NCBI GenBank assembly: GCA_050692985.1
Contig: JBOGVZ010000049.1
Location: 80,410-144,409, forward strand
Length of the DNA: 64,000 nucleotides
Direction of reading: 5' to 3'
DNA from: Actinomycetota bacterium
GTDB lineage: Bacteria > Actinomycetota > UBA4738 > CALAEC01
Below the pieces are notes generated by a model. The model was not told the DNA's origin, did not search any database, and worked only from the letters and a program-made list of their open reading frames with translations. Positions 7,278 to 49,451 of the stretch are shown here, in pieces. The stretch's first letter is position 1. Every line of letters begins with the position of its first letter. Both the position numbers and the translations under genes were made by a program.

Positions 7278-9080
7278 ATGCCCGCGACCTGGAGGTGGAG
7301 GATGCGAAGGCTCGCCCCGCTGGCCCTCTCGGTGTCCGTGGTCCTGGCCCTGGTACCGGCCGCCGGCGCCGGCGCCCGAGCCGAGGCGCCGATCGACCCC
7401 CCGGTGCTGGCCACGGCCGGGCGGCAGAGCGCCCTGGTCCACGTCGAGCCGTCGGCCTCCCTGGAGGCCGGGGTGGAAGCGGCCCGCGCCGCCGGCCTGG
7501 ACCTGGGAACCACGTATCCGATGATCAACGTGTTCGTGGCCTACGGCGACCGCGACGCCTTCCGCAAGGTCGCCGCCTCGCCGGTCGTGGAGCAGGTCGA
7601 GGCCAACAGCCTCCTGGAGCTGTTGACGAACACCTCCCACATCGCCACCCGGGGCCAGGACGTGCTCGACGGGGCCGTGACGCTCCCCGACGGCACCGTG
7701 ATCGACGGCACCGGGGTGGGGGTGGCCGTGGTGGACACCGGGGTGGAAGGGACCCACCCCGACCTGGAGAGCCGGATGGGCGGGAACGTGCGGATCTACT
7801 GCACCGCCCCGGGCGCGATCATCGCCATCGGGATCTCCGGCCTGGGGTTCTCGGAGTGCCGGGGCCCGAAGGTCGTGGTGCCCCTGGACGACACCGACAC
7901 CCCCGGAGCCGGCGGGCACGGGACCCACGTGGCCGGGATCGTGGCCGGCGACGGGACGGCCTCGGAGGCCACCTTCCACGGGGCCGCGCCGGGGGCCACC
8001 CTGTTCGGCGTGGCGGTGGGGACCACCCTGCTGGTGGAGAACGCCCTGGACGGGCTGCGGTGGGTCCTCGACAATCACGACCAGGTGGACCCGCCGATCA
8101 GGGTCGTCAACAACTCCTGGGGCGGCGGTCCCGGGCCCGGCGACGAGGACAACGTCCTCCAGGGAGCCATCACCAAACTCCAGAACCTGCTGATCGGCGA
8201 CGGCGTCACCGTGGTGTTCGCCGCCGGGAACTCCGGGGGGAACGGCTCCAACCAGCAGACCACCGCGCAGTGCGCCCTGACCACCCCGGGCAACGTCTGC
8301 GTGGCCTCCTACGACGACGGGGACACCGGCACCCGGGACGGCTCCCTGTCGTCGTTCTCATCCCGGGGCTCGGCAGCCAACGCGGCCACGTGGCCGGACA
8401 TCTCGGCTCCCGGCCAGTTCATCATCTCCACCTGCCGGTACACCCTGCCGGTGTGCTGGGTCCACGCCGGCCAGCAGCTCGATCCCCCGAACTCGTACTC
8501 CGAGCTGTCGGGAACCTCCATGGCCGCCCCCCACATCTCGGGGATCATCGCCCAGCTTTACCAGGCCAACCCCGACCTGACCCCGGCGCTGGTGGAGGAG
8601 GTGCTGGAGGACACCGCTCACAAGTTCACGTTCGGCGCGCCGTACCAGGACGACCCGTTCAACCCCGACGACACGTCGTCGTTCGACAAGGGGCACGGGC
8701 TGGTGGACGTCCTGGCCGCCGTGCAGGCGGTGCTGCCGGAGCCGGTAGAGCCGAGCCTGGAGATCACCGCTCCCGAGGACGGCTCGATCGCCCGCCAGAC
8801 GATCACGGTCTCCGGCACCGCGTCGCATCCAGGCACCGTGACCGTGGCCGTCGATGGGGTCGAGGTGGGCGCCGCCGACGGCAGCGCCCCCATGTGGTCC
8901 TTCGACCTGGACACCCTGAGGCTGCGGGAAGGCCTCCGCCAGGTGTCGGCGACGCTCTCCGCCGCCGACGGGGTGACGGCCCGCGACGCCATCACGATCG
9001 TGGTGGATAACTGCCCGCCCTACCAGGCCCCGGGAGGCTCCCGGCCGCCTCCGCCCAGCTGCCGCAAGGGCGGCCGTTAG
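7278..9080 (+). CDS. Secreted subtilisin-like serine protease (peptidase S8)
   Basis: Signal peptide MPATWRWRMRRLAPLALSVSVVLALVPAAGAGA (alternative ATG at 7302). Catalytic triad motifs: VAVVDTGV (Asp), HGTHVAGIVAG (His), GTSMAAPHISG (Ser). The C-terminus has an Ig-like region and a Cys/Pro tail. Confidence 0.85.
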   Translation: MPATWRWRMRRLAPLALSVSVVLALVPAAGAGARAEAPIDPPVLATAGRQSALVHVEPSASLEAGVEAARAAGLDLGTTYPMINVFVAYGDRDAFRKVAASPVVEQVEANSLLELLTNTSHIATRGQDVLDGAVTLPDGTVIDGTGVGVAVVDTGVEGTHPDLESRMGGNVRIYCTAPGAIIAIGISGLGFSECRGPKVVVPLDDTDTPGAGGHGTHVAGIVAGDGTASEATFHGAAPGATLFGVAVGTTLLVENALDGLRWVLDNHDQVDPPIRVVNNSWGGGPGPGDEDNVLQGAITKLQNLLIGDGVTVVFAAGNSGGNGSNQQTTAQCALTTPGNVCVASYDDGDTGTRDGSLSSFSSRGSAANAATWPDISAPGQFIISTCRYTLPVCWVHAGQQLDPPNSYSELSGTSMAAPHISGIIAQLYQANPDLTPALVEEVLEDTAHKFTFGAPYQDDPFNPDDTSSFDKGHGLVDVLAAVQAVLPEPVEPSLEITAPEDGSIARQTITVSGTASHPGTVTVAVDGVEVGAADGSAPMWSFDLDTLRLREGLRQVSATLSAADGVTARDAITIVVDNCPPYQAPGGSRPPPPSCRKGGR

Positions 9081-9375
9081 GGGGACGACCGGTCCCGCGG
9101 GCGAGGAAGGGGGAGCGGGGCCTGCCGCGCCCCCTCCTCGGGCGGGTCCCGACAGCCTTCGGTGACATTTCTCGGAAGAACCGGCCAATCCCGGAATCCG
9201 AACTTGACGCGGTTGTCCGGAACGGCCAAGATTCCCGGGCGAGGAAGGCAACCACTGGGCGATCCGGCCCGGTTGAGCGGAGGGAGGTGGTTGTCGAGGA
9301 CCAACGCCGTTGTCGGAGCTCTCCATGGGCTCCCTGCCCGTCGAATCCCTTTTCCTACACAGGAGGAACCGCTTG

Positions 9376-11316
9376 ATGAGGAAGTCTCCGCGCGTACTTG
9401 TCATGCTGGCCGGCGCCGTGGCGTTCGCCCTAAGCGGGCTGCCGGGCGCCAGCGCCACGCACAACGCGGACGTCCACACGCCCAACATGGCGTACGAGGG
9501 CACGTCCGTGAAGAACGACATCACCAACTCGGACCTGGCCTTCTGGGGGAACCGGGCCTATGCCGGGAACTACGCGGGGTTCCGGATCATCGACATCACG
9601 GACCCCACGGACATCGAGAACCCGGCCAACGTGATCACCGACTTCTCCTGTCCGGGTCCGCAGAACGACATCTCGGTGTGGGACAGCGATGGGGACGGGA
9701 CCGCCGACCTGCTGTTCCTGTCGGTGGACTCCCCACGCACGGATGACAGCTGTGCCAGTGGAGCCACCACTGCCAGCAACGTGGACTCCTGGGAGGGCGT
9801 CCGCATCTTCGACATCAGCAACGAGCTGGCCCCGGTGCAGATCGCGGCCGTGCCCACGGACTGCGGCTCGCACACCCACACGCTGGTGCCGGGGGACGAC
9901 GGGAACGTGTACCTCTACGTGTCCTCGTATCCGCTGGGAACCGCCGCGGTCACCACGAGCCTGGCGGCTCGCAACGATGTGGTGGTCGACGGCGTCCAGA
10001 TCGACTTCCCCGCGGGTGTCCGCAACGACGGGACGGAGTGCCTGGAGCCCGAGGCCGGGGAGGCCAAGCAGAACGGGATCCACAACAAGATCTCCATCAT
10101 CCGGGTTCCGGAGGCCGACCCGGCCTCTGCCGGCGACCGGACGCCGAACGACCCGGACGGCCCGGGCGGCAACGACCCCATCGGGTGGACCTACCCGAAC
10201 GTGAAGGAGGTCGCGCTCGACGGCGGCACGTACTGGACGCACCGCCCCTCGGGGGGCAGGGTCTTCGACTTCACCGCCTGCCACGACATCGCCGTGTTCA
10301 TGGAGATCAACCGGGCCGCGGGAGCCTGCTGGGCCGAAGGGCACATCTGGGACATCAGCTCCCCCTTCAGCCCGCACTTCCTCCGCCGGTTCCGCCACGA
10401 CAAGGTGAGCGACCTGTTCCACTCGGCCACCTTCTCGTGGGACGGCAAGATCATGGCCTTCGAGGATGAGTCCGGCGGCGGCGGCGCCGACCGGTGCCAC
10501 CTGGAGAACGGGGAGACGGACGAGCAGGGCGCCATGTACTTCTACACCCTGACCGGCGACCTCCTGGGGACCTTCAAGATCCCCATGGACATCCCCGGTC
10601 CGTGCACGGCGCACAACTACAACGTCGTCCCCGTCACCGACGGTCGGTACATCCTGTCGTCGGCCTGGTACACCGGAGGGACGTGGATGGTCGACTTCAC
10701 CGACCCGTCCGAGCCGGTGGACGTCGGCCACTACATCGCCAACACCGCGCCGAACGGCGTCGGGGATCCGATCTCGTCGGACGTGTGGTCGTCGTACTGG
10801 TACAACGGCTACGTCTACGCCAACGACGGGCTCCAGCGCGGCGACGCCATCCAGGAGCGGGGGCTGGACGTGTTCTCGTTCAACTCCCCGAAGGTGGCGA
10901 CGGCCATCGACCTGGACTTCCTGAACCCACAGACGCAGATGGAGCTGATCCCGCAGACTCCGGTGGTGCCACGGTGCTTCGGGCTCAACGCCACGATCGT
11001 GGGCACGAAGGACGCCGACGAGCTCGACGGGACCGCCCTGGCAGACGTGATCGTCCTCAAGGGAGGCCACGACACGTCGAACGGCAAGGGCGGGAACGAC
11101 CGCATGTGCGGCGGCGCCGGGCGCGATGAGCTGAGCGGCGGCAAGGGCAAGGACCGCCTCAAGGGAGGCAAGGGCGCCGACATCCTCGAGGGTGGGCCCG
11201 GAAACGACACCCTCATCGGCGGCCCCGGCGTCGACCTGTGCATCGGCGGCAAGGGCAAGAAGGACAAGGCGAAGGGCTGCGAGTTCATGAAGGGGATCGA
11301 GATCGTCCTCGACTGA
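9376..11316 (+). CDS. Secreted LVIVD-repeat beta-propeller protein with C-terminal RTX-type Ca-binding repeats
   Basis: RBS aggagga lies 8 nt upstream of ATG 9376. Signal peptide MRKSPRVLVMLAGAVAFALSGLPGASA. Repeats of the form GFRIIDITDPTD and GVRIFDISNELAP (LVIVD-like). The C-terminus has GGxGxD nonapeptides (GGHDTSNGKGGNDRMCGGAGRDELSGGKGKDRLKGGKGADILEGGPGNDTLIGGPGVD). It is a paralog of the gene at 13271-15280. Confidence 0.65.
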   Translation: MRKSPRVLVMLAGAVAFALSGLPGASATHNADVHTPNMAYEGTSVKNDITNSDLAFWGNRAYAGNYAGFRIIDITDPTDIENPANVITDFSCPGPQNDISVWDSDGDGTADLLFLSVDSPRTDDSCASGATTASNVDSWEGVRIFDISNELAPVQIAAVPTDCGSHTHTLVPGDDGNVYLYVSSYPLGTAAVTTSLAARNDVVVDGVQIDFPAGVRNDGTECLEPEAGEAKQNGIHNKISIIRVPEADPASAGDRTPNDPDGPGGNDPIGWTYPNVKEVALDGGTYWTHRPSGGRVFDFTACHDIAVFMEINRAAGACWAEGHIWDISSPFSPHFLRRFRHDKVSDLFHSATFSWDGKIMAFEDESGGGGADRCHLENGETDEQGAMYFYTLTGDLLGTFKIPMDIPGPCTAHNYNVVPVTDGRYILSSAWYTGGTWMVDFTDPSEPVDVGHYIANTAPNGVGDPISSDVWSSYWYNGYVYANDGLQRGDAIQERGLDVFSFNSPKVATAIDLDFLNPQTQMELIPQTPVVPRCFGLNATIVGTKDADELDGTALADVIVLKGGHDTSNGKGGNDRMCGGAGRDELSGGKGKDRLKGGKGADILEGGPGNDTLIGGPGVDLCIGGKGKKDKAKGCEFMKGIEIVLD

Positions 11317-11336
11317 CGCTCGCAGGTAGCAGGACG

Positions 11337-11370
11337 GGAAGGGGCCCGGCCGCCAGGCCGGGCCCCTTCC
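11337..11370. terminator. GC-rich hairpin downstream of the LVIVD/RTX gene
   Basis: GGAAGGGGCCCGGC-cgccag-GCCGGGCCCCTTCC. This is a perfect 14-bp stem with a 6-nt loop and no U-tract. Confidence 0.5.
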
Positions 11371-11433
11371 GTTGCCCGGGTCTCCCCTGCAACTCGGACG
11401 AAACGGCCGGGACGCGGTAAGATTCTGAGGCCC

Positions 11434-12747
11434 ATGAGCCGACCTGCCGTCCGGGCTCGAGCCGCCGCCGTGCTGGCCTCCACCGCCGTCCTCGCGGGCA
11501 TCCTGGTCAGCACCCCGGCCCGGGCCGAGGCCTGCGGCAACTTCTCCGTCCGCCTGGCCGAGCTGGCCTACGGCGAGCCCGTGGAGTCGGTGTTCAACCC
11601 GGTCCCGGGGGCCCACTTCTACTGGGCCGCCGAGGGATCCCCGAGCGTGGGGTTCACGATCGTGGCCTTCGGCCACGACTGCACCGGGCAGCAACACACC
11701 GCCAGCTTCGCCACGGGAACGGGGACGGCCACCTCGGGCCAGGACTACCAGGCCCGGACCGGGACCACCCCGCAGATGGAGGTTCAGGACATCGACCCGG
11801 AGTACTGGTCCAGCACCATCACCCTGCTGAACGACGCGGTCGCCGAGCCCGCCGTGGAGTACGTCCCGTTCTCGATCACGGCGTCCGGGGCCAACATCGT
11901 GTCCCCATGGTCGGTCCCGGTGTACCTGGTGGACGACGATGGGCTCAGCCGGGTGAGCCTGCCCCCCACCCCGACGAGCTACACCGTGGGTGAGAACGTG
12001 GGGACGTGGAGGATCCCGGTGTTCCGCGCCGGAGACGCCAGCGCGTCGAGCGGCACGATCACCGTCTCCGCCACGCACGGCACCACGGACGACGCCGACT
12101 TCAGCATCTCGCCGTCTTCGTTCTCCTTCGGCCCGGGGCAGCGGAAGCAAGACATCACGGTGACCATCGTTGACGACAAGGACGACGAAGCGGACTCGGA
12201 GTCCTTCACGGTGTCCATCTCCGGCACCCAGGTGGAGGCGCCCTCCAGCGTCACGATGAACATCCTCGACAACGATCTCCCCCCAGGGAGCGACACCGCA
12301 GCTCCCAAGACGTGGTTCCACCACCCAAAGCACAAGAAGGACTATGCGTTCGGCTCGCTCAAGGCCCGGACGATCCACGTGTTCGCCCCCACCGAGGACG
12401 TGGCCAACAAGTACGGCCCGGCCGAGCCCAGCGGGATCGACAAGGTCCAGGCGGCCCTGAAGAGGAAGAAGACCAGCGGCAAGTGCCAGTGGTGGACGGC
12501 CTCCCGCACGTGGAAGGGCGGGAAGTGCGGCTCGCCGAAGTGGTTCAAGCTGAAGTTCGACTTCAAGCTGGCCTCCGACCGCTACCTGTACGTGTACGAC
12601 CTGCTGACGGACCTCAAACCCAGCAAGGGGACCAAGGTCAAGTTCTACCAGGTGTGGTCCCGGGCCCAGGACGGAGCCGGCAACTGGGAGTCCACCTTCG
12701 AGGTCGGCCGGAACAAGAACAGGTTCGAGATCAACAAGAAGAAGTAG
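11434..12747 (+). CDS. Secreted protein with two Calx-beta-like domains and a Lys-rich C-terminal module
   Basis: Signal peptide MSRPAVRARAAAVLASTAVLAGILVSTPARA. Calx-beta signatures: ATGTGTATSGQDYQARTG and TITVSATHGTTDDADF...TIVDDKDDEADSESFTVSIS. From about nt 12300 the sequence drops in GC and becomes Lys-rich (KWFKLKFDFKL...KVKFYQVWSRAQDGAGNWESTFEV). Confidence 0.6.
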   Translation: MSRPAVRARAAAVLASTAVLAGILVSTPARAEACGNFSVRLAELAYGEPVESVFNPVPGAHFYWAAEGSPSVGFTIVAFGHDCTGQQHTASFATGTGTATSGQDYQARTGTTPQMEVQDIDPEYWSSTITLLNDAVAEPAVEYVPFSITASGANIVSPWSVPVYLVDDDGLSRVSLPPTPTSYTVGENVGTWRIPVFRAGDASASSGTITVSATHGTTDDADFSISPSSFSFGPGQRKQDITVTIVDDKDDEADSESFTVSISGTQVEAPSSVTMNILDNDLPPGSDTAAPKTWFHHPKHKKDYAFGSLKARTIHVFAPTEDVANKYGPAEPSGIDKVQAALKRKKTSGKCQWWTASRTWKGGKCGSPKWFKLKFDFKLASDRYLYVYDLLTDLKPSKGTKVKFYQVWSRAQDGAGNWESTFEVGRNKNRFEINKKK

Positions 12748-12777
12748 TCGGAGCCCGTCGGAAGGGAGGATCGGCCT

Positions 12778-13197
12778 ATGGAGAAGGAATCGCGAGACGC
12801 GCAGGTGGCTCCGGAAGGGACCCGGCGTGTGTGGCGGCGTGTCCTGGCGATCGGGATCGCCCTGGTCCTGGTGGTGGCGATGTCCGCGGTGGCGCTGGCT
12901 GCCGTCCAGAAGGTGAAGGCGGTGGACGGCAACAAGTTCAAGCCCAAGCATGCGTACATCGAGCGGCTCGACAAGATCAAGTGGGTGAACAAGGACAACA
13001 TCACGCACAACGTGAAGTCCACGAACCTGAAGAAGAACTGGAAGTACGGTCCGAAGACCATCAAGCCCGGAGAGAGCGTCAGCCGGAAGTTCAAGAAGCT
13101 GGGGACGTACATCTACCGGTGCACGCTGCATTCCGCGATCGTGAGCGGCGTGTGCGAGGGGATGTGCGGGTTCGTCCACGTGCAGAAGAAGACCTAG
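12778..13197 (+). CDS. Membrane-anchored cupredoxin (plastocyanin/amicyanin-like blue copper protein)
   Basis: RBS gggagga. N-terminal TM anchor. IKWVNKDNITHNV (His ligand region) and GTYIYRCTLHSAIVSGVCEGMCGFVHV (Cys-x2-His...Met type-1 Cu loop). Lys-rich, lower-GC codon usage. Confidence 0.6.
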   Translation: MEKESRDAQVAPEGTRRVWRRVLAIGIALVLVVAMSAVALAAVQKVKAVDGNKFKPKHAYIERLDKIKWVNKDNITHNVKSTNLKKNWKYGPKTIKPGESVSRKFKKLGTYIYRCTLHSAIVSGVCEGMCGFVHVQKKT

Positions 13198-13221
13198 CGC
13201 CGCGCGCGCCACGCACGAGAG

Positions 13222-13250
13222 AAGGGGGCCGGCTGGACGCCGGCCCCCTT
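13222..13250. terminator. Bidirectional hairpin between convergent cupredoxin and LVIVD-2 genes
   Basis: AAGGGGGCCGGC-tggac-GCCGGCCCCCTT. Perfect 12-bp stem with a 5-nt loop. Confidence 0.55.
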
Positions 13251-13270
13251 CCTCGTGAACCGCCCCGGCC

Positions 13271-15280
13271 CTACGGGCCGGTGTACCTGAAGATGTACAG
13301 GCCGAAGTCCCGGTCGCTGGCCACGATCAGGCGACGGCCCTTGTCATCCTTTCCGGCAAGCTGGACGCCCCAGAAATCGTTCCCACCGATGTCGGCGAAG
13401 TGGCCGACCTCGTTGATCCCGATGTTCTTGCCGTACTTGGCCACCCGGAAGCCACCGTCGTAGTAGGCGAAGTACGCCAGCTTCCGGTTCCCCTTCATCG
13501 AGTCGGTGGCCACCTCGTGGACGGAGTAGGTCCCGCCCTGGATGGCCAGGTCCTCGTCGAGGCCTTCGGGGATGACGTACTGATCGAGCTCGGTGGACGT
13601 CCCGTTGAGCGGGTCGCTCTGGAACAGGTGGCTGTAGCCCCACCCGTCGAAGTGCGCGGTGAAGGCCACGTCGTCACCGACGTCACCGACGTCCGGCTCG
13701 ACGTCGCCGGGGTCACCGACCGGATAGGGCACCGTGTAGTCCGGGGGGTACCCGAACAGCAGGTGCATCTCCCGGTGCCCGATGCAGGTGCCCGGGATCT
13801 GCGGGTCGAAGATGTGCCCCTGGCTCCCGCAGATGAAGGCATCCGGGCTGGCTCCCGCGCCCGACCCGGAGTGGTGGTTGGCGACGATGGCGCCGCCGTA
13901 GCCCAGGAGCTGGGCCGTCTCCACCTTCTCGGAGAAGAAGCAGGCGTCCCCCGGGTTGTTCGGGTCAGAGACCGGTCCCCGCTGGGTCACCAGGATGAGC
14001 TCCTCGTCGGGCCCGGTGGCGATCCCGGTCTCCGCGGCCGTGGGGATGTTGTCCCTGTCGTTCGGGCAGGCATAGCCGCCGAACACCGTCGGACCGTTCA
14101 TCGAGTTGTCCGGCAGCGTGGCGATCGGCACCGTCCACCCGAACTCCCCGGCCGGATACTCGCCGGCGTTGGGTCCGCTCGTGATGAAGTGGTCCTGCCG
14201 GAACGGCGAGAAGTCCTCATCGTTGCCGATGAAGAGCTTCTTGGACCGGTTCCACTCCCCGTAGTGTGCGTTGCCCTCCGGAGGGCAGAACGCGGGGAAG
14301 AACGGCTCGCAGGCGGCGTAGTCGCTGTCGCCCAGGAACACCGGGTTGGCCGGGTCGCTGAGGTCCAGGTTGACCCACCCGCCGTCCCAGTACGACAGCA
14401 GCCCGACTGGCGTGCCGTCGACCTTCTTCGTGGTCAGGTCGTGCAGGAAGGCGTTCGTCCCGAAGGCGTCCACGTTCAGGCTCGGCCAGTCCGGTCGCCC
14501 CGTCTCCTGGATCAACACGGGGTTCGTCGGGTCGCTGAGGTCGAAGATGTCGACGTCGTACTGGCCCGACTCGTTGTTGTCCACCGCGATCGCGTAGACG
14601 TTGCCCCCGCCCTTCCAGGCGAACGCGCTGTGGTACTGGTGAGGGGCGGTGATGATCGCGCCGGGGTCCTGGAAGTGGCCGATCGTGGTGTCGCCCACAC
14701 CCTCGGACAGCTTCACCGCGTCCCGGGGATCCGTGATGTCCCAGATCGTCAGGCCCCCGATGCCGCCCGGGCCGCAGATCTCGTTGGAGATCAGCAGGAT
14801 GTCCCCGGTGAATGCGGCGGTGTTCATGTGGAAGGCCTGCATCCCCTCGGTGGCATAGGTGTTCGTGTGGCTCTTGAGGAACCCGCCGACCTTCCCGGGC
14901 TTCTCTGGGTTGTTCATGTCCACGACCCAGGAGCCGCCCGTGCACAGCTCGAACGGAAGGCCCGCCTGCCACCTGGCCAGATAGGCGAAGCCCTTGTGAT
15001 AGGCCACGTCCGCCACGCGGCTCTCGACCTTCGTGACCTGGAGCTTGCCAACGAGCTTCACGTTGGACTTGGTCCCCTCAGGGCGATTGGTCGCCTTGCC
15101 CTTCGGGGCGGCATGGTCACCCCTCTGTTCCGCCACCTCCTGCATGGTGGTCTGCCCGTCCCGGGCATTCTTGCTGCCCCCACCGTCGCCATCGTCGTCG
15201 GCCGACACTGGGCCGGAGACGAATAATCCGGTGGCCAGCGCAAGGCCGAGGACGAGCGCGAGGCTCCTGCGTCGCTGCAT
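13271..15280 (-). CDS. Secreted LVIVD-repeat beta-propeller protein (paralog 2)
   Basis: Signal MQRRRSLALVLGLALATGLFVSGPVSA followed by a DDDGDGGG acidic linker. Repeats GLTIWDITDPRDAV and YDVDIFDLSDPTNPVL. It sits immediately downstream of copCD on the same strand. Confidence 0.65.
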   Translation of the reverse strand: MQRRRSLALVLGLALATGLFVSGPVSADDDGDGGGSKNARDGQTTMQEVAEQRGDHAAPKGKATNRPEGTKSNVKLVGKLQVTKVESRVADVAYHKGFAYLARWQAGLPFELCTGGSWVVDMNNPEKPGKVGGFLKSHTNTYATEGMQAFHMNTAAFTGDILLISNEICGPGGIGGLTIWDITDPRDAVKLSEGVGDTTIGHFQDPGAIITAPHQYHSAFAWKGGGNVYAIAVDNNESGQYDVDIFDLSDPTNPVLIQETGRPDWPSLNVDAFGTNAFLHDLTTKKVDGTPVGLLSYWDGGWVNLDLSDPANPVFLGDSDYAACEPFFPAFCPPEGNAHYGEWNRSKKLFIGNDEDFSPFRQDHFITSGPNAGEYPAGEFGWTVPIATLPDNSMNGPTVFGGYACPNDRDNIPTAAETGIATGPDEELILVTQRGPVSDPNNPGDACFFSEKVETAQLLGYGGAIVANHHSGSGAGASPDAFICGSQGHIFDPQIPGTCIGHREMHLLFGYPPDYTVPYPVGDPGDVEPDVGDVGDDVAFTAHFDGWGYSHLFQSDPLNGTSTELDQYVIPEGLDEDLAIQGGTYSVHEVATDSMKGNRKLAYFAYYDGGFRVAKYGKNIGINEVGHFADIGGNDFWGVQLAGKDDKGRRLIVASDRDFGLYIFRYTGP

Positions 15281-15402
15281 ACCTCTCCCCCCCTTTCAGG
15301 GTCCGTAGGCGGACGAACTCTAGGCTTTTCCCGACTTGCGGCGCAACCCTCGACCTGGGGGTATCGACCTCCTTGGCCGGCTCTTCTTGTGTGACATGCC
15401 GC

Positions 15403-17352
15403 TCAAGCACCCAACCCGGCCTCGAAGCACCCCGACAGGCCGGCCTCCGGGGCCACTCCGTCGAATCGCCAGCGGCCGGGTTCCAGCCTGGCGTTTGCGG
15501 AGAAGTGGCCTCGCGACAGGGGATCGGCCCGGAGCGTCATGGGATCGGTCCCCGGCTGCCACGCCGTGATCGTTGGGGTACCCGCCGCCACCTCCTCCCC
15601 CCCCTCGTCGAGGAACGTGAAGTGCACCTCGTAGCTGGGCCCCCCGAAATACAGGGTGTATCCCTCCACCGACCCTCCGGCCGGCGGCTCCGTCAGGTAG
15701 ATCGTCGGTTGGGCCGAATCCGGGGGCGGCTCGATCTCCTGGGCCCGGCACACCGTGGCCATCTGGAGGGGCACCTCCACGGCGGTGTCCCCCTCCTGGA
15801 CCAGGACCGCGACGTCCCACACCCCGCCCACGGCCAGGTTGCTGCCCACCCCCCGGTAGTCGCCCTCGTCCTCGGCCTGGAGGGCCAGCGTGGTGTCGCT
15901 CACTCCCCCGCCGGTGAACGAGAAGCGCACCTGCACGCGGTCGGCATCAACCGGCTCGCCGGAGTCGAAGTCGGTCACCTGGACCCGGAACCGGTTCGGG
16001 CCGGGGAGCGCGGGGTCGACCTCGAGCCGGGCACGCACCGAGGTGGCGAAGTCCGACCCTGCGACCGACACCGCGGCCGGCGGGACGGTCACCGGGGGGA
16101 CGGACTGCGGGGGAACCAGCGCGGCCAGGGTCCCCGCGGCGGCAAGCGTGACCGCGCCCAGGACGAGCTCCCCCCTGGAGACGCGGCGCAGCCCCCGCAG
16201 GGAGCGGCGGGCCGCCGGCACGTTCCGGTACCGATTGACGGCTCCCAGTCCGGCCAGCCCCAGCAGGAGCCCGGCCTTCACCAGGACGATCACCCCGTAC
16301 GAGGAGGAAACCAGCTCGCCCCAGGCACCGACCTCGTCCACGGCCCGGAGGACGCCGGTCGCGGCCACCGCGCCCAGGCCGAACGCCGCCACCGCCGAGA
16401 ACCGCCGGACGGCCCGGGCCTTGGCCTCGTCCGTGTCGCCCCGGACACCGACGAGCAGGGCGGCCAGGCCGCCGAGCCACACCCCGGCGGCGGTGAAGTG
16501 GGCCCACTGGAACCCGACGCTGGCCCACTCGAACCGCCCACCCGCGGCCGCATGGCCCGAGGCCACGTGGACCAGGATCCCGGCCGAGGCCACCACGCCG
16601 GCGGCCAACAGGGCGGGGCGCCGGGCCGCGGGGCGCCCCCACGTGGCCACGACCACCAGCACCCCGGCCACCCAGATGGCCGCCGCTCGCCACAGCAGGG
16701 CCCGGCCCACCGGGGTCCCAAGCAGGGCGCCCACCCCGGCGCCGGCCGCCCGCCCCTGGGCCACCGCCAGCCCCGCCAGCCCGAGCGCGGCCACCCCGGA
16801 GGCCCACAGGGCCACCCGCAGCGTCCGCCTGGGCGGCTCCCGGAACGCCAGGGCCCCGACCCACCCGGCTCCCACCACGAACCCCAGCCCGACGAACAGC
16901 GCCCACCGGCCGGCGATCTCCAGGAGGGATGGGGACTCCGAGGGCGGCTCGGGGGTCGGCGGGAGCGTCGCCTGGAGCGGCGACACGCCCACCCCAAAGG
17001 CGAACGCGCCCCCGGTGGGATGGCCGTCCACCCGGGACACCACCCGCCACGTCACGGTGTAGACCCCCTCCTCCAGCGGGCGGAGGCCCACCCGGAGCGC
17101 CAGCGGCTGGCCGGGCACGGGCTCCGCGGAGCCCTCCTGGACCTCGGCCCCTCCCTGGTCGAGCACCCGGACGTGTGACAGCGAGGGCTCCGGGGGCTCG
17201 GTCAGGGTGATCGTGACCTCCCGGGGACCCTCCTCGACCTGGGCGCCGTCGGCGGGATCGGACCCGCTCAGCAGGGCGTGGGCTCGGGCCGGGGTTGGGA
17301 GCGACAGCAGCGCCGCCGTGGCCACGGCGGCTGCCAGGAGGAGGCGTCGCAC
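15403..17352 (-). CDS. copCD: Fused CopC-CopD copper resistance/uptake protein (YcnJ-like)
   Basis: GTG start giving VRRLLLAAAVATAALLSLPTPARA-HALLSGSDPADGAQV. The CopC cupredoxin-like domain (TWRVVSRVDGHPTGGAFAFGV) is followed by a ~8-TM CopD domain and a C-terminal soluble domain. Confidence 0.8.
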   Translation of the reverse strand: MRRLLLAAAVATAALLSLPTPARAHALLSGSDPADGAQVEEGPREVTITLTEPPEPSLSHVRVLDQGGAEVQEGSAEPVPGQPLALRVGLRPLEEGVYTVTWRVVSRVDGHPTGGAFAFGVGVSPLQATLPPTPEPPSESPSLLEIAGRWALFVGLGFVVGAGWVGALAFREPPRRTLRVALWASGVAALGLAGLAVAQGRAAGAGVGALLGTPVGRALLWRAAAIWVAGVLVVVATWGRPAARRPALLAAGVVASAGILVHVASGHAAAGGRFEWASVGFQWAHFTAAGVWLGGLAALLVGVRGDTDEAKARAVRRFSAVAAFGLGAVAATGVLRAVDEVGAWGELVSSSYGVIVLVKAGLLLGLAGLGAVNRYRNVPAARRSLRGLRRVSRGELVLGAVTLAAAGTLAALVPPQSVPPVTVPPAAVSVAGSDFATSVRARLEVDPALPGPNRFRVQVTDFDSGEPVDADRVQVRFSFTGGGVSDTTLALQAEDEGDYRGVGSNLAVGGVWDVAVLVQEGDTAVEVPLQMATVCRAQEIEPPPDSAQPTIYLTEPPAGGSVEGYTLYFGGPSYEVHFTFLDEGGEEVAAGTPTITAWQPGTDPMTLRADPLSRGHFSANARLEPGRWRFDGVAPEAGLSGCFEAGLGA

Positions 17353-17368
17353 AGGGCCCTGCGGGTGG

Positions 17369-18001
17369 CTAGGAGGCACGGCGTCCGGCCAGGCCGGCCC
17401 CGGCCAGGACCACGGCCAGGGCGGCCAGGACGACGGCCACGATCGCCAGCACGGTAGAGGCGCCGGCACCGGATCCCAGGTCCTGCGCCTGGATGTCCTG
17501 CCGGAGCGCCTGGATGCGGGAGTCGATCCGATCCAGCCTGGTGGCCAGCTCCCCGGCGGTGGGGTCCCGGGCCGGGAACTGCGCGTCCGCGGGGTTCTGG
17601 ACGTCGTCGAACGTCTCGCCCGAGGTGAACTCCTCGTCGAAGTCCCGACCGGCCAGCGCGCCGGTGATGAGGAACGTGTAGGTCCCCGGGCGGGTCGGGA
17701 TCAGGAACGCGTGGTACTCGCCGGGGCTGCCGAACGCGGGAAGGAGGGGCAGCGGCTCGGTCGACTCCGTGCTGTCGGGGTCGCCGAACAGCACCTGGAC
17801 CTCCAGGTCGGCCCCCCGGACGGGCCGGTTGCCCCGGACCGCCGTGAGCTGGACCGCGTTGGCGAAGCCGGCGAAGGCGGGCTCTTCGAGCCAGCCGACC
17901 TCAACCTCCAACGGCCCGACCTGCCGTTCCTCGTGGGCCCGGGCCGGGGTGAGCGTCAGCAGCAGGACCCCGGACGCGGCAACGACGACACCCCTCCACA
18001 C
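17369..18001 (-). CDS. ycnI: YcnI-like (DUF1775) copper-binding protein with C-terminal TM anchor
   Basis: Signal MWRGVVVAASGVLLLTLTPARA, then the mature protein starts HEERQVG (N-terminal His). It ends in a C-terminal hydrophobic anchor. It lies directly upstream of copCD, matching the ycnI-ycnJ arrangement. Confidence 0.65.
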   Translation of the reverse strand: MWRGVVVAASGVLLLTLTPARAHEERQVGPLEVEVGWLEEPAFAGFANAVQLTAVRGNRPVRGADLEVQVLFGDPDSTESTEPLPLLPAFGSPGEYHAFLIPTRPGTYTFLITGALAGRDFDEEFTSGETFDDVQNPADAQFPARDPTAGELATRLDRIDSRIQALRQDIQAQDLGSGAGASTVLAIVAVVLAALAVVLAGAGLAGRRAS

Positions 18002-18045
18002 GGCCCGCCAAGTGTAGCGGGTGCCCGCGCGCAGGGGCGTCGGTG

Positions 18046-18792
18046 CTAGGGGGCCGGCGTGAGGCCCTCGGCCACCCGGGTGAGCTCGTCCAGGCCGAGC
18101 CCGTACTCGTTCACCGAGTGGAAGGTGCAGTCCTTCGTCGGGTCGCTCGTGGCGCCCCTATTCGGGTGCCGGAACTGGACCATGAAGTCCTCGCCCGCCG
18201 GGCCTTCCTCGTAGTTCGGGACCACCGGGCCGAAGTCGGCCGTCTCCCGGCCGAGCACGGTGATCGTGGGGCCGCCCTCCTCCTGGACGATCTCCACGAA
18301 CAGCATCCCCGGGCGGCGGATCTCGAACGACCGCTCGCCGTCGGTCCAGTGCACCACGCCCTGGCCGTCCTCCGCAGGGTAGATCGACTGGGGGGCGGGC
18401 CCCGGCACCGGGTCCTCGGAGAACCCCTCAGGCAGGTGCGACGGCTCGAAACCCAGCGGGCCGGGGCAGGCCCCGGTCAGGACCACTGAGGACCCCCCGA
18501 CGGGGCTGGGGGTCAGTTCCGCAGTGGCCGTCTCCTCCGGGGTCGGCGAGGGGGCGCTGGGAGAGCCGAAGCCCACCGGTGGCCGCTCCCCTCGGACCGC
18601 CTCCAGGGCCCGGGGGACGCCCACCGCGGCGGCGGCGATCACCGCGGCCGCGGCCATCCCCGCACCGACCCGGTAGAGGGTGCGGCGGCGCCGTCCCCCC
18701 GACACGACCCGGCGCAGCGACGGATCCACCTCGGGATCCGCGTCGGCCGCCAGCCGGGGCAGCCCGTCGCGCAGCCGGTCATCCAGCGACAT
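18046..18792 (-). CDS. Putative anti-sigma factor (single TM, proline-rich extracytoplasmic domain)
   Basis: Starts MSLDDRLRDGLPRLAAD and overlaps the sigma-factor stop by ~14 nt. There is a TM segment at MAAAAVIAAAAVGV. Assignment rests on position and topology only. Confidence 0.5.
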   Translation of the reverse strand: MSLDDRLRDGLPRLAADADPEVDPSLRRVVSGGRRRRTLYRVGAGMAAAAVIAAAAVGVPRALEAVRGERPPVGFGSPSAPSPTPEETATAELTPSPVGGSSVVLTGACPGPLGFEPSHLPEGFSEDPVPGPAPQSIYPAEDGQGVVHWTDGERSFEIRRPGMLFVEIVQEEGGPTITVLGRETADFGPVVPNYEEGPAGEDFMVQFRHPNRGATSDPTKDCTFHSVNEYGLGLDELTRVAEGLTPAP

Positions 18793-19303
18793 CAGAGACC
18801 TCCTCCTCTCCCAGCACCTCGGCCAGGCGCTTCCGCGCCCGGTGGAGGTGCACCTTGGCGGTCGAGGTGGCGCATCCCATGATCTCGGCCACCTCGGCCA
18901 CCGGTCGATCCTCGAAGTAGTGCAGGACCACCGCGGCCCGCTGCGAGGACGGCAGTCCCAGCAGCGCCCGGCGGAGGTCCGGGTCGGACACTGGCTCGGT
19001 CCGTCCCGGGTCCTCGACCTCCGCCTGGAGCACGGTCCGCCGGCCGGCCCGCAGCGACCGCGACGCCAGCCTGATGGCCACCCGGCGGACCCAGGCACCC
19101 GGACGTTCGTACCGGGAGATGCGCCGCCACCGCGCGTACAGTCGGATGAAGGCCTCCTGGGCGACGTCTTCCGCCGCCGCCCGGTCGCCCAGCATCAGGT
19201 ACGCCGTGCGCACGATCGCGGGGTACTCGTCACGGAACAGCCAACCGAACGCGGTGTCCGTGTCCGTCTCCCGTGCCACTCGCAGCTCCGTGGTCAGTGC
19301 CAT
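18779..19303 (-). CDS. ECF-type RNA polymerase sigma factor (sigma-70 family, group 4)
   Basis: MALTTELRVARETDTDTAFGWLFRDEYPAIVRTAYLMLGDRAAAEDVAQEAFIRLYARW (region 2) and LPSSQRAAVVLHYFEDRPVAEVAEIMGCATSTAKVHLHRARKRL (region 4 HTH). Confidence 0.85.
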   Translation of the reverse strand: MALTTELRVARETDTDTAFGWLFRDEYPAIVRTAYLMLGDRAAAEDVAQEAFIRLYARWRRISRYERPGAWVRRVAIRLASRSLRAGRRTVLQAEVEDPGRTEPVSDPDLRRALLGLPSSQRAAVVLHYFEDRPVAEVAEIMGCATSTAKVHLHRARKRLAEVLGEEEVSDVAG

Positions 19304-19364
19304 ACCCTCCCACAGCCCCGGGCGTCGGGGAAGGTTTACCGACGACGGGGCCCTTCCCGGAGGC

Positions 19365-20030
19365 CTACCGGCGGTCGAGCTCCTCTCGAAGGGCTCCCAG
19401 GGCATCGGCTTCCTCGGGGGTGCGGGCCAGCCGGATCAGGTCGTCGACCGAGGCCACGCGGACCGTGAAGTCGCCCATCGGGACAGCCTCCGCGGCGCGG
19501 TCGAGGAGCTCGTAGGAGCCCACGCGGCGGAGCGCCCACCGCGGCGTCACGGTCCCGTACCGGATCCGGCCCGCTCCCAGCCGCTGGACGGCCAGCCGCA
19601 GGCGGCGACGGTTCATGGCGTCCGGCCGGGGAGCAACCTCAACCGTGCTCGGCCAGGCGGGCGCCCCGCGCAGCAACGCGGCCACGCCCCCGATCGCCAC
19701 ACATCGGACGCGGCGGCCCCTGACGAGGATCCGGAGCACCTGGGCCGGCCGGAAGCCTGGGGCGCTCGCATGTGCCAGGCGCTCGGACGGGGTCAGCCGC
19801 AGGAGGTCCCGGATTTCCTTCCGGTCCACGTCCATCCCGAGTCGGGGCTCGACCGCCAGCGAGGCCCCGCACGCTCGCAGGAGCCGCTCGAGCGTGTCGA
19901 CCCGGGGGATGCCCCCGCCACGCTCGATGCGCGCCACGGCGGGCTGAGGCAGCCCGGCCCGCCGGGCCACCTCGGCCTGGGTCAGCCCCGCACGAGCCCG
20001 TGCCTCCCGGAGGACCCTCGCAGCGTTCAC
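19365..20030 (-). CDS. XRE-family HTH transcriptional regulator with C-terminal domain of unknown function
   Basis: N-terminal LTQAEVARRAGLPQPAVARIERG matches a Cro/C1-type HTH. It lies 61 nt upstream of the ECF sigma gene on the same strand. Confidence 0.6.
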   Translation of the reverse strand: MNAARVLREARARAGLTQAEVARRAGLPQPAVARIERGGGIPRVDTLERLLRACGASLAVEPRLGMDVDRKEIRDLLRLTPSERLAHASAPGFRPAQVLRILVRGRRVRCVAIGGVAALLRGAPAWPSTVEVAPRPDAMNRRRLRLAVQRLGAGRIRYGTVTPRWALRRVGSYELLDRAAEAVPMGDFTVRVASVDDLIRLARTPEEADALGALREELDRR

Positions 20031-20075
20031 CCCGAGCCCCGATCCCGGAAGGGGATCTGCACGGCTCGAGAATTT

Positions 20076-20091
20076 ATAACGTTTTCGTTAT
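20076..20091. promoter_or_regulatory. Operator-like inverted repeat ATAACG-tttt-CGTTAT
   Basis: Read directly in the AT-rich intergenic region upstream of the XRE gene. The minus-strand reading gives TATAAAT (-10-like) overlapping the site. Confidence 0.45.
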
Positions 20092-20135
20092 GGGCGTGGG
20101 GGCGCCCCAAGGAAGGAGGGCGGGACAAAAGGCCC

Positions 20136-20153
20136 TATAACACATTCGTTATA
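20136..20153. promoter_or_regulatory. Operator-like inverted repeat TATAAC-acattc-GTTATA
   Basis: Second site with the same ATAAC/GTTAT half-sites, about 60 bp from the first. Confidence 0.45.
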
Positions 20154-20205
20154 ATTTCACGAGGGTGTCCGGAAGGCTCTCGCGATCCTCTCGTCCGCGG
20201 AGGCG

Positions 20206-20604: not shown

Positions 20605-20611
20605 GTTCCTC

Positions 20612-46228: not shown

Positions 46229-46735
46229 CTACCGGGCCGTCACCTCGATCGCCTCCGCGATCTCCGGGTCGAACGAGATGTGCCGGTTGTCGACGTACTC
46301 CACCCGCAGGGTGTGCCGCCCGGGCTCCAGCTCGACCTGGGCGATGCTCGAGTACGGCATCTGCTGGAGCTGCCCGTCCACGTACAGGTGCAGGTGGCCC
46401 CCCTGCTCGTCGGTGGGAGAGGTGGCGATCTCCGCACCCACCACCGCAACCTCGATCTCTACGGGCTCGCCGGCGGCGACCCGCTCCCCGGGCGCCGGCC
46501 GGAGGATCGCTACCGTGGCGTCGGGGGCCGGGGAGCCGAACGGCGAGAGCACCGCGCCGAGGACCACGAGCACCAGGCCGACGCCCAGGACCCACCGGCC
46601 CACCGACAGGCCGCCCTTCCAGGCGGCCGACAGGGCGACGGCCACCAGGACGAGCGCGCCGCCGGCGATCATCACCGGGACGTTCCCGCCCTCCGGCCCG
46701 GCGATGTGGGCGATCAGGGGAACCATCTCCTTCAT
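46229..46735 (-). CDS. Small membrane-anchored protein with periplasmic His-containing domain (possible Cu-associated accessory protein)
   Basis: MKEMVPLIAHIAG..., two TM segments, then a beta-rich domain with GGHLHLYVDGQ. It sits directly downstream of copCD-2. Function is unknown. Confidence 0.45.
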   Translation of the reverse strand: MKEMVPLIAHIAGPEGGNVPVMIAGGALVLVAVALSAAWKGGLSVGRWVLGVGLVLVVLGAVLSPFGSPAPDATVAILRPAPGERVAAGEPVEIEVAVVGAEIATSPTDEQGGHLHLYVDGQLQQMPYSSIAQVELEPGRHTLRVEYVDNRHISFDPEIAEAIEVTAR

Positions 46736-46799
46736 TCTGATCGTATCTTCCCTTCCGGCGAGTGCCGGGCCGACGTCATCCCGGCCAACGTCGCGGCGT

Positions 46800-48752
46800 T
46801 CACCCTTCGATCTCCTCCCTGAAGTACGCGTCGACCGGGGTTCCCTCCGGCGTCGAGCCCTCCACCCGGAACGTCCACCGGCCCGCCCCGAGGTCCTCCT
46901 GGGCCACGAAGTGCCCCGGGGAGAGCACAACCGGGTCCAGCAGGAGCGGTGCCCCGGTTTCGGGAGCGGCCTCGAAACGGGCGACCTCTACCGGCTGCTC
47001 GGCCCCTTCTGGGGTGAGGAAGGTGAGGTGGACCTCGTTGGGGCCTTCCTTCCCCGGATCGACGAATCCCTGGATCGAGATCCCGTTCGGCAGCGCGATC
47101 GTGTAGATGGTGGGCTGGCCCTCCGCCTCGGAGACCGTGATGTCCTGGGGTGGGAGGCGGGTGCGGAGCCCGAGGTCGATCGTCCGGGAGTCCCCGCCCA
47201 GGAGGACCAACGCGTCGACCTCCCAGGAGCCGTCGACCGAGAGGTTGGGCCCCTCGGCTCGCCACGCTGCCTGCCCGACGCTCTCCAGGTCCAGCTCCGA
47301 GGGCGCGATGTCCGGCCGAGAGGGGAGGGAGAACGACAGACGAACGCCAGTCGCGTCCACGGGCTCTCCCTCGCCGTCCGTGACCCTCACGTCGAATCGA
47401 TTGACCCCCGCCGTGCCGGGGGTGGCGGTCAGCCGGACATGGAGCAATCCCGCGGGATCCGACCCCTCGGCCACCACGCGGGCGGGAGCAACCGGAGGGG
47501 GGGCCTGGGCCGGCGGGGGGAGACCGGCCATCAGGCCGGTGAGCCCGAAGACTCCCGCCCCGATGGCCAGCTCGGCGCCCACCGTGCGGCGGAGGGTCCC
47601 GAACAGCCGGCCGCGCGAGGAGATGCGGGGGACGATCCGGTACCGGTTGTAGGCGCCCAGGGCCAGCAGACCCAGGAACAGGGCGCTCTTGCCCACCACG
47701 GTCAGGCCGAAGCCCGTGTCGATCAGGCGATCCGGCTCCAGGCCCACCTGGTTCAGCGCGCGGAGGACCCCCGTCACGGCCACCACGGGGAGGGCCACCG
47801 TGGCCAGCGCGGAGAACCGGCGGACGGCACCGGAGCGTTCCTCGTCCGGCTCCCCCCTGATCCCCACCAGGAGCCACAGCAGCCCTCCCACCCAGGCCGC
47901 CACGCTGAGGATGTGGACCCACTGCACCCCGACGTGCAGGGGCGCGTTCTCCACGGCGCTGGCATGGCCGGCGAAGGCGTGGACCAGCATGGCGAGGGCG
48001 GCCGCCGCGGCGAGGATCGCGGCGATCCACCGGCGGGGCCGGAGCGCCGAGGCCGCGGTCGCCGGCAGGGCCAGCAGGACGACGGCGCCGCGCGCCACGA
48101 GGAGCCGGCCCCGCTCGGATCCCAGCAGCTCGGCCGCGGGGACGTCCACGGCGGCACGCTCGGCCAGGAACATGCCGAGGACGCCGAGGGCGGCCGCGGC
48201 CCAGGCGAGCCACAGCAACCCCGGCACCGGACTCCGTGCCCGGAAGACAAGGAGGCGCCCCAGGGCCCCGCCGAACAGCAACGCGAGCCCCCAGTAGAAG
48301 GCCCACCGGGATCCGACGGCCAGGGGGGTGGGACGCTCCTGGGTCGGGTAGGACCCCTTGGGCTCGGCGACAGGCTCCACCGCCTGGCCCACCCCGAAGG
48401 CGAACGACCCCGTGGTGACGTGACCGTCGGCCGTGGAGAGGACCCGCCAGCTCACCGTGTACGTGCCCCGGGACAACTCCGGCAGCGACACCCTGAGCCC
48501 GCGTGGCTGGCCGGCGACGCCCTCGAGGGGGCCGACCTCCACGGGGGCTCCGGTGGAGTCGAACACCCGGATCTGCGACAGCCCGTGATCGGGCGGCTCG
48601 GTGAACGTGATCACGATCTCCGGCGGGGCGGTGTCGAGCACATCGCCGTTGGCCGGGGAGGAGCTCTGCAGGAGCGCGTGGGCGTGGGCGGCCGGGCCGG
48701 TCATCACCAGCCCGGCCGCCGCCAGCCCGAGAACGACGAGCGCCCGCCGCAC
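46800..48752 (-). CDS. copCD: Fused CopC-CopD protein, second copy
   Basis: MRRALVVLGLAAAGLVMTGPAAHA-HALLQSSSPANGDVL. CopC domain (YTVSWRVLSTADGHVTTGSFAFGV), then CopD TM helices, then a C-terminal soluble domain. Same architecture as 15403-17352. Confidence 0.8.
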   Translation of the reverse strand: MRRALVVLGLAAAGLVMTGPAAHAHALLQSSSPANGDVLDTAPPEIVITFTEPPDHGLSQIRVFDSTGAPVEVGPLEGVAGQPRGLRVSLPELSRGTYTVSWRVLSTADGHVTTGSFAFGVGQAVEPVAEPKGSYPTQERPTPLAVGSRWAFYWGLALLFGGALGRLLVFRARSPVPGLLWLAWAAAALGVLGMFLAERAAVDVPAAELLGSERGRLLVARGAVVLLALPATAASALRPRRWIAAILAAAAALAMLVHAFAGHASAVENAPLHVGVQWVHILSVAAWVGGLLWLLVGIRGEPDEERSGAVRRFSALATVALPVVAVTGVLRALNQVGLEPDRLIDTGFGLTVVGKSALFLGLLALGAYNRYRIVPRISSRGRLFGTLRRTVGAELAIGAGVFGLTGLMAGLPPPAQAPPPVAPARVVAEGSDPAGLLHVRLTATPGTAGVNRFDVRVTDGEGEPVDATGVRLSFSLPSRPDIAPSELDLESVGQAAWRAEGPNLSVDGSWEVDALVLLGGDSRTIDLGLRTRLPPQDITVSEAEGQPTIYTIALPNGISIQGFVDPGKEGPNEVHLTFLTPEGAEQPVEVARFEAAPETGAPLLLDPVVLSPGHFVAQEDLGAGRWTFRVEGSTPEGTPVDAYFREEIEG

Positions 48753-48755
48753 CGC

Positions 48756-49378: not shown

Positions 49379-49451
49379 GTGTCCTCCCTTTTCGTAGGTT
49401 CGACCGACGCTCGCCGAGAGACCCGGGCGGCGCCGAGGTGCTACGGATCGG

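Follow-up and report, generated by a model that had tools for sequence, protein, structure and literature searches.

A putative copper-import core and a partner protein of a new kind between murA and atpC of uncultured Actinomycetota

How bacteria import copper is understood far less well than how they export it. In Bacillus subtilis, ycnKJI is a copper-acquisition operon in which YcnI is a Cu(II) protein of the DUF1775 family and YcnK is the repressor. Cu(II) is exchanged between YcnI and the CopC domain of YcnJ, which supports haem-copper oxidases (PMC12362106, PMC13344008). CtaK (YtkA) acts in CuA assembly of cytochrome caa3 and overlaps functionally with the YtkA domain of YcnJ, for which no reductase is known (PMC13344008). 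Work on YcnJ, YcnI and CtaK is recent and does not settle the capture, reduction and routing of Cu(II). Here we analyse a 64,000-nt stretch of an actinomycetotal metagenome-assembled genome (MAG; GCA_050692985.1, contig JBOGVZ010000049.1, positions 80,410 to 144,409), termed the window, in which a ten-gene interval separates murA from atpC; its products are an S8 protease followed by P2 to P10 (Table 1). We find that the interval contains a copper-import core, formed by a putative importer of the YcnJ type (P6) and a partner protein of a new kind (P7). We favour, with a probability of roughly 0.55, a reading of the whole interval as a mosaic of this core, a clade-specific trio (P2, P3 and P4), regulators of shallow conservation and unlinked passengers. 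All organisms involved are uncultured Actinomycetota.

P6 combines the domains of a YcnJ-type protein. It matches Pfam CopC (PF04234) with 78.5 bits against a cut-off of 23.3 and CopD (PF05425) with 66.6 bits against 32.1, and its residues 436–525 match both FixH (38.3 bits, cut-off 23) and YtkA (33.0 bits, cut-off 25.9); its score of 63.5 bits against NCBIfam copper_CopC lies under the equivalog cut-off of 95. The signal peptide probably ends in PARA, directly before HALLSGSDP, a cleavage site inferred from the sequence that would place a His at the mature N terminus. The second His of a His-brace is present in a D-x-H motif (RVDGHPTGG), and no Met-rich Cu(I) site was found when the CopC domain was read by sequence. 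P6 is thus a putative Cu(II) importer, which we denote, like its relatives, CopCD.

The gene preceding that of P6 had been called YcnI. However, the P7 protein of the window has no match to DUF1775 (PF07987) at E <= 0.01, and none of the 34 family members that we aligned matches it at E <= 1. Instead, 22 of these 34 relatives match the YtkA-like family PF13115 when E <= 1 is allowed, the best of them at 2e-6. PF13115 is also assigned to some in precomputed annotations, and the P7 of the window stays under the cut-off (17.5 bits, cut-off 25.9). The alignment reveals a nearly invariant signal-peptide junction (A-x-A/H-E, with cleavage at the slash), and H23 is kept in at least 90% of members. 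An AlphaFold2 model of P7 (pLDDT 86) shows an eight-strand beta-sandwich followed by a helix and a transmembrane segment, with a helix at residues 181–208 as the C-terminal transmembrane anchor, and no YcnI entry is among the top fold matches to this model. The family is large, with 115 word-index matches and 2,337 cluster representatives at E <= 1e-3, and is annotated as ‘hypothetical’ in all ten clusters checked.

The genomic context of P7 ties it to the importer. We collected 80 metagenome P7 loci, 57 of which have at least 500 nt downstream and are therefore informative; in 55 of these, a CopCD gene adjoins the P7 gene on the same strand. Long contigs give the same picture, with a CopC–CopD gene for roughly 650 amino acids directly after a P7-like gene in five of five. 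P7 is an obligate partner of P6, adjoining it nearly everywhere the family occurs. This large, unnamed, YtkA-like family appears to replace YcnI beside CopC–CopD–YtkA importers in Actinomycetota. In many of these organisms, the P7–CopCD pair is preceded by a gene for a protein of roughly 190 amino acids with four predicted transmembrane helices (4-TM), conserved His residues and no Pfam match. The gene is seen in L084–L088, L092 and other P7 loci; tblastn detected it in 16 of 56, a figure that is probably too low, and its product may be a further component of the importer. A canonical cluster has the 4-TM His-rich gene upstream of P7–CopCD and, often, a DUF4399 gene downstream.

By analogy with YcnJ, YcnI and CtaK of B. 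subtilis, P7 would be the extracytoplasmic copper-capture partner of P6. It would capture Cu(II) outside the membrane through its N-terminal His site and exchange it with P6 at the CopC His-brace; from there, CopD would move the copper inward to feed the assembly of cuproproteins.

The trio stands beside this core in a recurrent arrangement. In the window and in all five informative contigs of relatives (L084, L169, L170, L171 and JGI RTe5Vdrk), a P3 gene is followed by a gene for a P4-like cupredoxin, and the two converge on CopCD. Wherever the contig extends to the P2 side of this block (L170 is cut there), an orthologue of P2 or a P2-like gene adjoins it. The flanks of the block vary, comprising murA with a 328-aa gene, atpC with an XRE gene, SCP2–MeaB or an M14 peptidase gene. 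With respect to atpC, the block of L171 is inverted compared with that of the window, and the block stays together through such local inversions. In the lineage of the window, P5 is inserted at the junction of P4 and CopCD. The P2–P3–P4 trio is a clade-specific accessory of the copper core, and the conserved neighbourhood expected by the preliminary description of this DNA exists for these three genes, which co-localise with CopCD in other genomes, but not for P5.

P3 belongs to a rare family, with 19 homologues in 5.8 billion proteins. One Calx-beta domain lies above the hidden Markov model (HMM) threshold (48 bits); a weak internal similarity (E = 4e-4) hints at the second domain of what had been described as a double Calx-beta protein. 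The C terminus of P3 contains 17% Lys. P4, with 14% Lys, scores 32.6 bits against Copper-bind (PF00127; cut-off 21.2), and its type-1 ligands are all present: a His (in THNV), Cys-x2-His (in YRCTLH) and a Met (in GM). These are kept in four close homologues, including those on L084, L169 and L171, and in most family members an insertion of 10 residues that includes a Cys separates the second His from the Met. With its type-1 ligands kept, P4 is therefore to be read as an electron carrier needing copper, rather than as a copper-trafficking or chaperone fold. Of the Cu-related proteins noted earlier, P6 and P7 would form the copper-handling core, and P4 would be a copper client. The N-terminal region of P4 (12778–12910) has Arg pairs in the n-region and, after a hydrophobic stretch, an AxA site (ALA/AVQK). 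Thus, the Lys-rich cupredoxin that had been taken as membrane-anchored may instead be cleaved and possibly Tat-exported; its homologues disagree on the twin-Arg motif.

In the mosaic reading, P6 and P7 would supply copper to P4 as a client encoded at the same locus, and P4 would carry single electrons at the cell surface, possibly on behalf of P2. The rare pairing of a Calx-beta gene with a blue-copper gene beside an importer makes its products candidates for a local copper client or redox partner.

The third member of the trio, P2, and the inserted P5 are both beta-propellers. P2 has RTX repeats (55.5 bits) and an LVIVD match (PF08309) of 18.7 bits, under the cut-off of 20.2, and its orthologues (48–63% identity) adjoin the Calx gene in L169, L171 and L172. 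P5 has no LVIVD match of its own and only a weak PA match in Pfam. Its family comprises more than 941 proteins, and its homologues carry PF08309 and PF02225. The LVIVD assignments made earlier are thus borne out through relatives (many P5 homologues and P2 orthologues contain PF08309, some faintly) and not by matches above the cut-off in the window proteins. The fold is that of a beta-propeller in both, and a model of P5 (pLDDT 86.7, pTM 0.83) shows seven blades with a PA insert. The two had been regarded as paralogues, but their BLASTP match (E = 0.001) covers 24 residues of the repeat motif and hhalign gives 91% probability over 89 columns, indicating that they are only distant homologues.

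To our knowledge, LVIVD-type propellers have no assigned function; the LVIVD literature that we found consists of a description of the repeat in 2004 and incidental mentions. The only characterised relative is Sb-PTE of Sphingobium sp. TCM1 (PDB 5HRM/5IOJ), a seven-bladed beta-propeller phosphotriesterase with a binuclear Mn centre. It carries LVIVD-like repeats and is the sole solved structure found by the P5-family profile in sequence searches (E 1.5e-4); a central sub-profile of the family did not recover it. P5 and P2 are related to Sb-PTE in both sequence and fold. The invariant residues of the P5 family are E145, H217, H280, H339, E355 and H588, and those of the P2 family are D99, H167, H304-D305, H350, E366 and H414; in both families, conserved His, Glu and Asp residues are spaced about one propeller blade apart. 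An alignment places P5 E145 on Sb-PTE E201; beyond this residue, the order and spacing of the invariant residues in P5 and P2 appear to resemble those of the two Glu and four His ligands of the binuclear Sb-PTE centre. This pattern suggests that both propellers are metalloenzymes of the Sb-PTE type, rather than adhesins or the copper handlers that they had been proposed to be. We also considered membership of SBP56 (methanethiol oxidase), a family of copper-dependent thiol oxidases, and rejected it: one distant P5 homologue matches and the window proteins do not.

These observations bear on a bolder account, in which the YcnJ-type importer of this clade has acquired a dedicated extracytoplasmic redox set consisting of P4, its Calx-beta companion and the RTX/LVIVD metallo-propeller. 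Either P4 would donate the electron that turns CopC-bound Cu(II) into Cu(I) for transport by CopD, or P2 would be a new oxidoreductase that receives its metal from P6 and P7 and has P4 as its electron acceptor. The intact type-1 site of P4, the invariable convergence of P4 and CopCD and the missing reductase of YcnJ would all fit, as would the conserved His residues in several blades of P2, which may lie at the propeller hub, and the SBP56 match of that one P5-family member. If true, reduction of CopC-bound Cu(II) by P4 would fill the place of the reductase that is so far missing from every CopCD/YcnJ system. However, most CopCD–P7 pairs work without a cupredoxin, the neighbourhood encodes no electron source for P4, and a propeller pattern of four His and two carboxylates is typical of hydrolytic Mn/Zn/Fe centres. 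We consider a redox set of this kind quite improbable, in either form.

P5 and the S8 protease lie outside the conserved block. We examined 81 P5-family loci, 78 from a scan of species-representative genomes and three from contig look-ups. CopCD, P7, P8 and XRE genes occur in none of them (tblastn and HMMs), and in an unbiased clustering of their neighbours no family is found in more than 8 of the 81, which led us to reject a conserved operon partner for P5. P5-like genes often adjoin murA in close relatives (L037, L038 and L041), often in several copies. On L037 (5215–8709) and L038 (5821–11533), PA-LVIVD genes adjoin murA, and on L041 (923–16460) six LVIVD genes lie between murA and atpC together with a frameshifted-looking cupredoxin gene, without CopCD. 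The murA-proximal region of related MAGs is a hot spot for secreted LVIVD-type genes. As for the S8 protease, no homologue is present in L084 or L169–L172, and L169 has at its position the 328-aa protein, which has no family match. The protease is a passenger outside the conserved block, and its absence from every other instance of the block does not support a role as maturase of the other secreted products. Both P5 and the protease would be independent secreted proteins.

A second copper cluster in the same window, at 46–50 kb, has the canonical composition. It adjoins rpmE, rho and prfA, its DUF4399 protein scores 33 bits, and the identical four-gene order is found in L085–L088. Its P7 paralogue is split, which reflects either a real frameshift or a pseudogene, or else an assembly error in the MAG. 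With this canonical cluster present, the P6–P7 pair of the interval is an extra paralogue, and it comes without counterparts of the 4-TM and DUF4399 genes. Orthologues of the island pair in L084 and L092 (54–56% identical) retain the 4-TM gene and lie between MeaB–ADH–SCP2 and murA.

The extra P7–P6 copy is preceded by regulatory genes, and the ECF (extracytoplasmic function) sigma factor together with P8 may place it under the control of an envelope signal. P9 has sigma-70 regions 2 and 4 only (Sigma70_r2, 48 bits; r4_2, 61 bits) and scores 139 bits against TIGR02983, just under the cut-off of 141.55. Its start is likely the ATG at 19303, after a GGGAGG ribosome-binding site (19304–19311), with an alternative at 19405. 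P8, whose gene overlaps the stop of the sigma gene by 14 nt, was read earlier as the anti-sigma factor. Its position and its topology, with about 43 cytoplasmic residues ahead of a single transmembrane helix, make it an anti-sigma candidate, but it has no Pfam or NCBIfam match and no recognisable anti-sigma domain. We also asked of P8 whether it is the gene of roughly 190 codons that precedes P7 elsewhere, and rejected this: the two are unrelated, that gene encoding the 4-TM His-rich protein.

Conservation of this regulatory arrangement is shallow. In the closest relative, L173, P8 (69% identical), P7 (75%), CopCD (82%) and P5 (74%) are collinear with the window, and the sigma gene is not seen because the contig starts inside the P8 gene. 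The P8–P7–CopCD–P5 arrangement is found nowhere else. Among the 80 metagenome P7–CopCD loci, P8 or XRE occurs in none and a weak, distant ECF match in two. The ECF motif GGAAC-N14-19-CGTY, the consensus of which may not be that of this sigma group, is absent from the intergenic regions of the interval, and its 16 matches across the window are near the 9.5 expected by chance. Control of P7–P6 by the sigma factor is plausible from position, and the sigma factor with its putative anti-sigma factor is at most a recent, narrowly conserved addition. P10 matches HTH_3 (55.5 bits). A homologue with 43% identity lies directly beside atpC in L171, and the XRE gene therefore belongs to the atpC flank. 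Two AT-rich palindromes upstream of it look like the operators of an autoregulated XRE repressor.

The intergenic regions argue for several transcription units, at least five. A perfect 15-bp stem follows P2 (−46.6 kcal/mol over a 64-nt context), and the convergent terminator noted earlier between P4 and P5 corresponds to a strong hairpin (plus strand, z = −6.2; minus strand, z = −6.7). The stem-loop after the S8 gene (9081–9150) is weak, with z = −1.7, and not significant against shuffles. Promoter-like elements precede P2 and P5; they were located by eye and by conservation with L173, a scan for consensus sigma-70 promoters having found nothing. The 122-nt gap before P5 is 87% identical to its L173 counterpart, with both hexamers within the conserved stretch, and P5 appears to have its own promoter. 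The single minus-strand transcript proposed for these genes would fit the short or overlapping junctions from the sigma gene through P8 and P7 to P6, and appears to break down before P5.

We can now weigh the proposal of the preliminary description that all ten genes form one ECF-sigma-controlled extracellular machine for copper acquisition, sensing or delivery, with copper handled by the two propellers and the Calx-beta protein, and with the S8 protease as their maturase. Every product of the interval except the regulators is predicted to be exported, CopCD, P7 and P4 are copper-related, the sigma-to-P6 junctions are tight, and the order P8–P7–P6–P5 is repeated in L173. Yet the S8 protease, the ECF sigma factor and the anti-sigma candidate are missing from all other P2–P3–P4–CopCD blocks, P5 accompanies CopCD in 0 of 81 loci, and P8 and XRE are absent from the metagenome P7–CopCD loci. 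The hairpins and separate promoter-like elements divide the interval, its intergenic regions contain no ECF promoter motif, and the propellers resemble a binuclear-metal hydrolase rather than a copper binder. A single machine is, in our view, very improbable, slightly more so even than the redox set.

Several points weigh against the mosaic reading itself. All trio contigs belong to one clade (murA 74–82% identical), so that inherited gene order could explain the co-localisation without a functional link. Moreover, a neighbouring cupredoxin, Calx or LVIVD gene is missing from 83 of the 85 P7 loci, and the copper core can therefore dispense with the trio. Copper binding by P7 is argued from fold, topology and the N-terminal His only, and the window protein lacks the His of a ‘TFH’ motif common to most family members. 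To these are added the missing ECF-type promoter motif and the absence of a recognisable anti-sigma domain in P8. Finally, the conserved His/Glu pattern of the propellers points to a hydrolase-type binuclear site, leaving P4 without an obvious redox partner.

Some of these points suit a leaner account in which only P6 and P7 are linked functionally and P2, P3, P4, P5 and the S8 protease have piled up in the variable hot spot between murA and atpC. The block-bearing contigs share the anchors murA, atpC and MeaB and are fairly close kin, relatives hold varying numbers of LVIVD genes, up to the six of L041 that lack CopCD, most P7 loci do without the trio, and the conserved residues of P2 and P5 show an Sb-PTE-like pattern. 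On the other hand, P3–P4 is convergent on CopCD in every informative contig despite altered flanks and inversion relative to atpC, and these contigs are divergent, with P3 33–46% identical and CopCD down to 28%. A type-1 copper protein also requires a copper supply, which an adjoining importer would give it. We regard pure synteny as unlikely, although a good deal less so than the single machine or the redox set, and retain the mosaic reading.

Coordinates of the interval, its flanks and the second cluster are collected in Table 1. The genes of the interval were chosen by third-position GC; their order, which agrees with independent gene calls on contig CDIABC010000071.1 of MAG GCA_975305695.1, is as first described, and the domain calls made then for the S8, RTX, Calx-beta, cupredoxin, CopC–CopD, ECF sigma and XRE proteins all have Pfam or NCBIfam matches.

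Table 1 Features of the window discussed in the text (positions count from the first nucleotide of the window)
Feature	Position	Strand	Description
murA	5907-7181	-	Left flank; TIGR01072, 550 bits
S8 protease	7278..9080	+	Secreted subtilisin-family protease, C-terminal Ig-like domain; Pfam Peptidase_S8 165 bits, and Big_7
P2 promoter-like element	9204-9232	+	TTGACG-N17-CAAGAT, upstream of P2
P2	9376..11316	+	Secreted LVIVD-type beta-propeller, C-terminal RTX calcium-binding repeats
Hairpin	11336..11370	+	Between P2 and the P3-P4 unit; 15-bp perfect stem, z = -4.2
P3	11434..12747	+	Secreted Calx-beta protein, Lys-rich C-terminal domain
P4	12778..13197	+	Small type-1 blue copper protein, rich in Lys; gene 30 nt after that of P3
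Bidirectional terminator hairpin	13221..13251	.	Between P4 and P5; 13-bp G+C stem, 5-nt loop
P5	13271..15280	-	Secreted 7-bladed LVIVD-type propeller with inserted PA domain
P5 promoter-like element	15317..15346	-	TTGCGC-N18-TAGAGT, within the gap before P5
P6	15403..17352	-	YcnJ-type CopC-CopD-YtkA/FixH fusion, putative Cu(II) importer
P7	17369..18001	-	Membrane-tethered YtkA/CtaK-like beta-sandwich, predicted mature N-terminal His
P8	18046..18792	-	Single-pass membrane protein, anti-sigma candidate
P9	18779..19303	-	ECF-type sigma factor
P10	19365..20030	-	XRE-family regulator, C-terminal domain without assignment
Operator-like palindromes	20075-20091, 20136-20152	.	17 bp, AT-rich, upstream of XRE, 61 bp apart; TATAACGTTTTCGTTAT and TATAACACATTCGTTAT
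atpC	20206-20604	-	Right flank; TIGR01216
Second, canonical copper cluster	46229..50042	-	4-TM His-rich gene, split P7 paralogue, CopCD paralogue, DUF4399 gene
CopCD paralogue	46800-48752	-	40% identical to P6; CopC and CopD also by NCBIfam
P7 paralogue, split by frameshift	49130-49378 and 48756-49259	-	Two overlapping open reading frames in different frames
4-TM His-rich membrane protein	49452-50042	-	Open reading frame

Along the direction of transcription, the minus-strand order is XRE (P10), ECF sigma (P9), P8, P7, P6 and P5. As first described, the genes between murA and atpC are lineage-specific: the gap is a lineage-variable insertion zone, filled differently in the relatives L041, L171 and L169. 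The G+C content is 0.64–0.70 at 9000–15000 and 0.73–0.79 in the flanks, in a genome of about 73% G+C. This dip coincides with the Lys-rich secreted proteins, and most other genes of the interval encode at most 1% Lys. Recent horizontal transfer of the whole island was considered and rejected, because the dip tracks the Lys-rich genes, the orthologues of which in relatives are equally Lys-rich. An Rfam scan of 7000–20800 gave no match at E <= 0.1. Directly downstream of murA, on the minus strand (3569–5910), lie a gene for an Rce1-like CPBP protease and one for a conserved 546-aa exported protein without a family match; Rce1-like genes also come after CopCD–DUF4399 genes in L085–L087.

Both the accessory products and the core can be compared with described proteins. 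P4 resembles plastocyanin and amicyanin in passing the PF00127 cut-off with the His-Cys-His-Met ligand set, and differs from them in its Lys content and in being always paired with a Calx-beta protein, convergent on CopCD. The propellers differ from Sb-PTE in carrying a PA-domain insert of about 130 residues (P5) or RTX repeats (P2). Helicobacter pylori CrdA and the beta-sandwich proteins P19/FetP/Tp34 share 11–17% identity with P7 and have different metal ligands, and no evidence past the fold was found for shared ancestry with P7. Like P7, of whose relatives most carry the PF13115 signal, CtaK is membrane-tethered and extracytoplasmic; however, CtaK is a lipoprotein, whereas P7 relies on a C-terminal helix as its anchor, keeps a His at its mature N terminus and shows an obligate pairing with CopCD.

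Close counterparts are found in the ycnKJI operon. P7 and YcnI are alike in being exported, in having His as the first residue after cleavage, in their C-terminal transmembrane anchor and in being encoded beside the importer (PMC8424229, PMC12362106), but P7 is YtkA-like rather than a DUF1775 protein. The gene order is partner before importer in the window, in contrast to importer before partner in B. subtilis. In place of a YcnK-type repressor, the window has an ECF sigma factor and a single-pass protein upstream, and the canonical actinobacterial cluster has the additional 4-TM His-rich and DUF4399 proteins. P6 itself shares with YcnJ the three-domain CopC–CopD–YtkA architecture and, as read from its sequence, would likewise present the mature N-terminal His and DGH motif expected of a Cu(II) His-brace.

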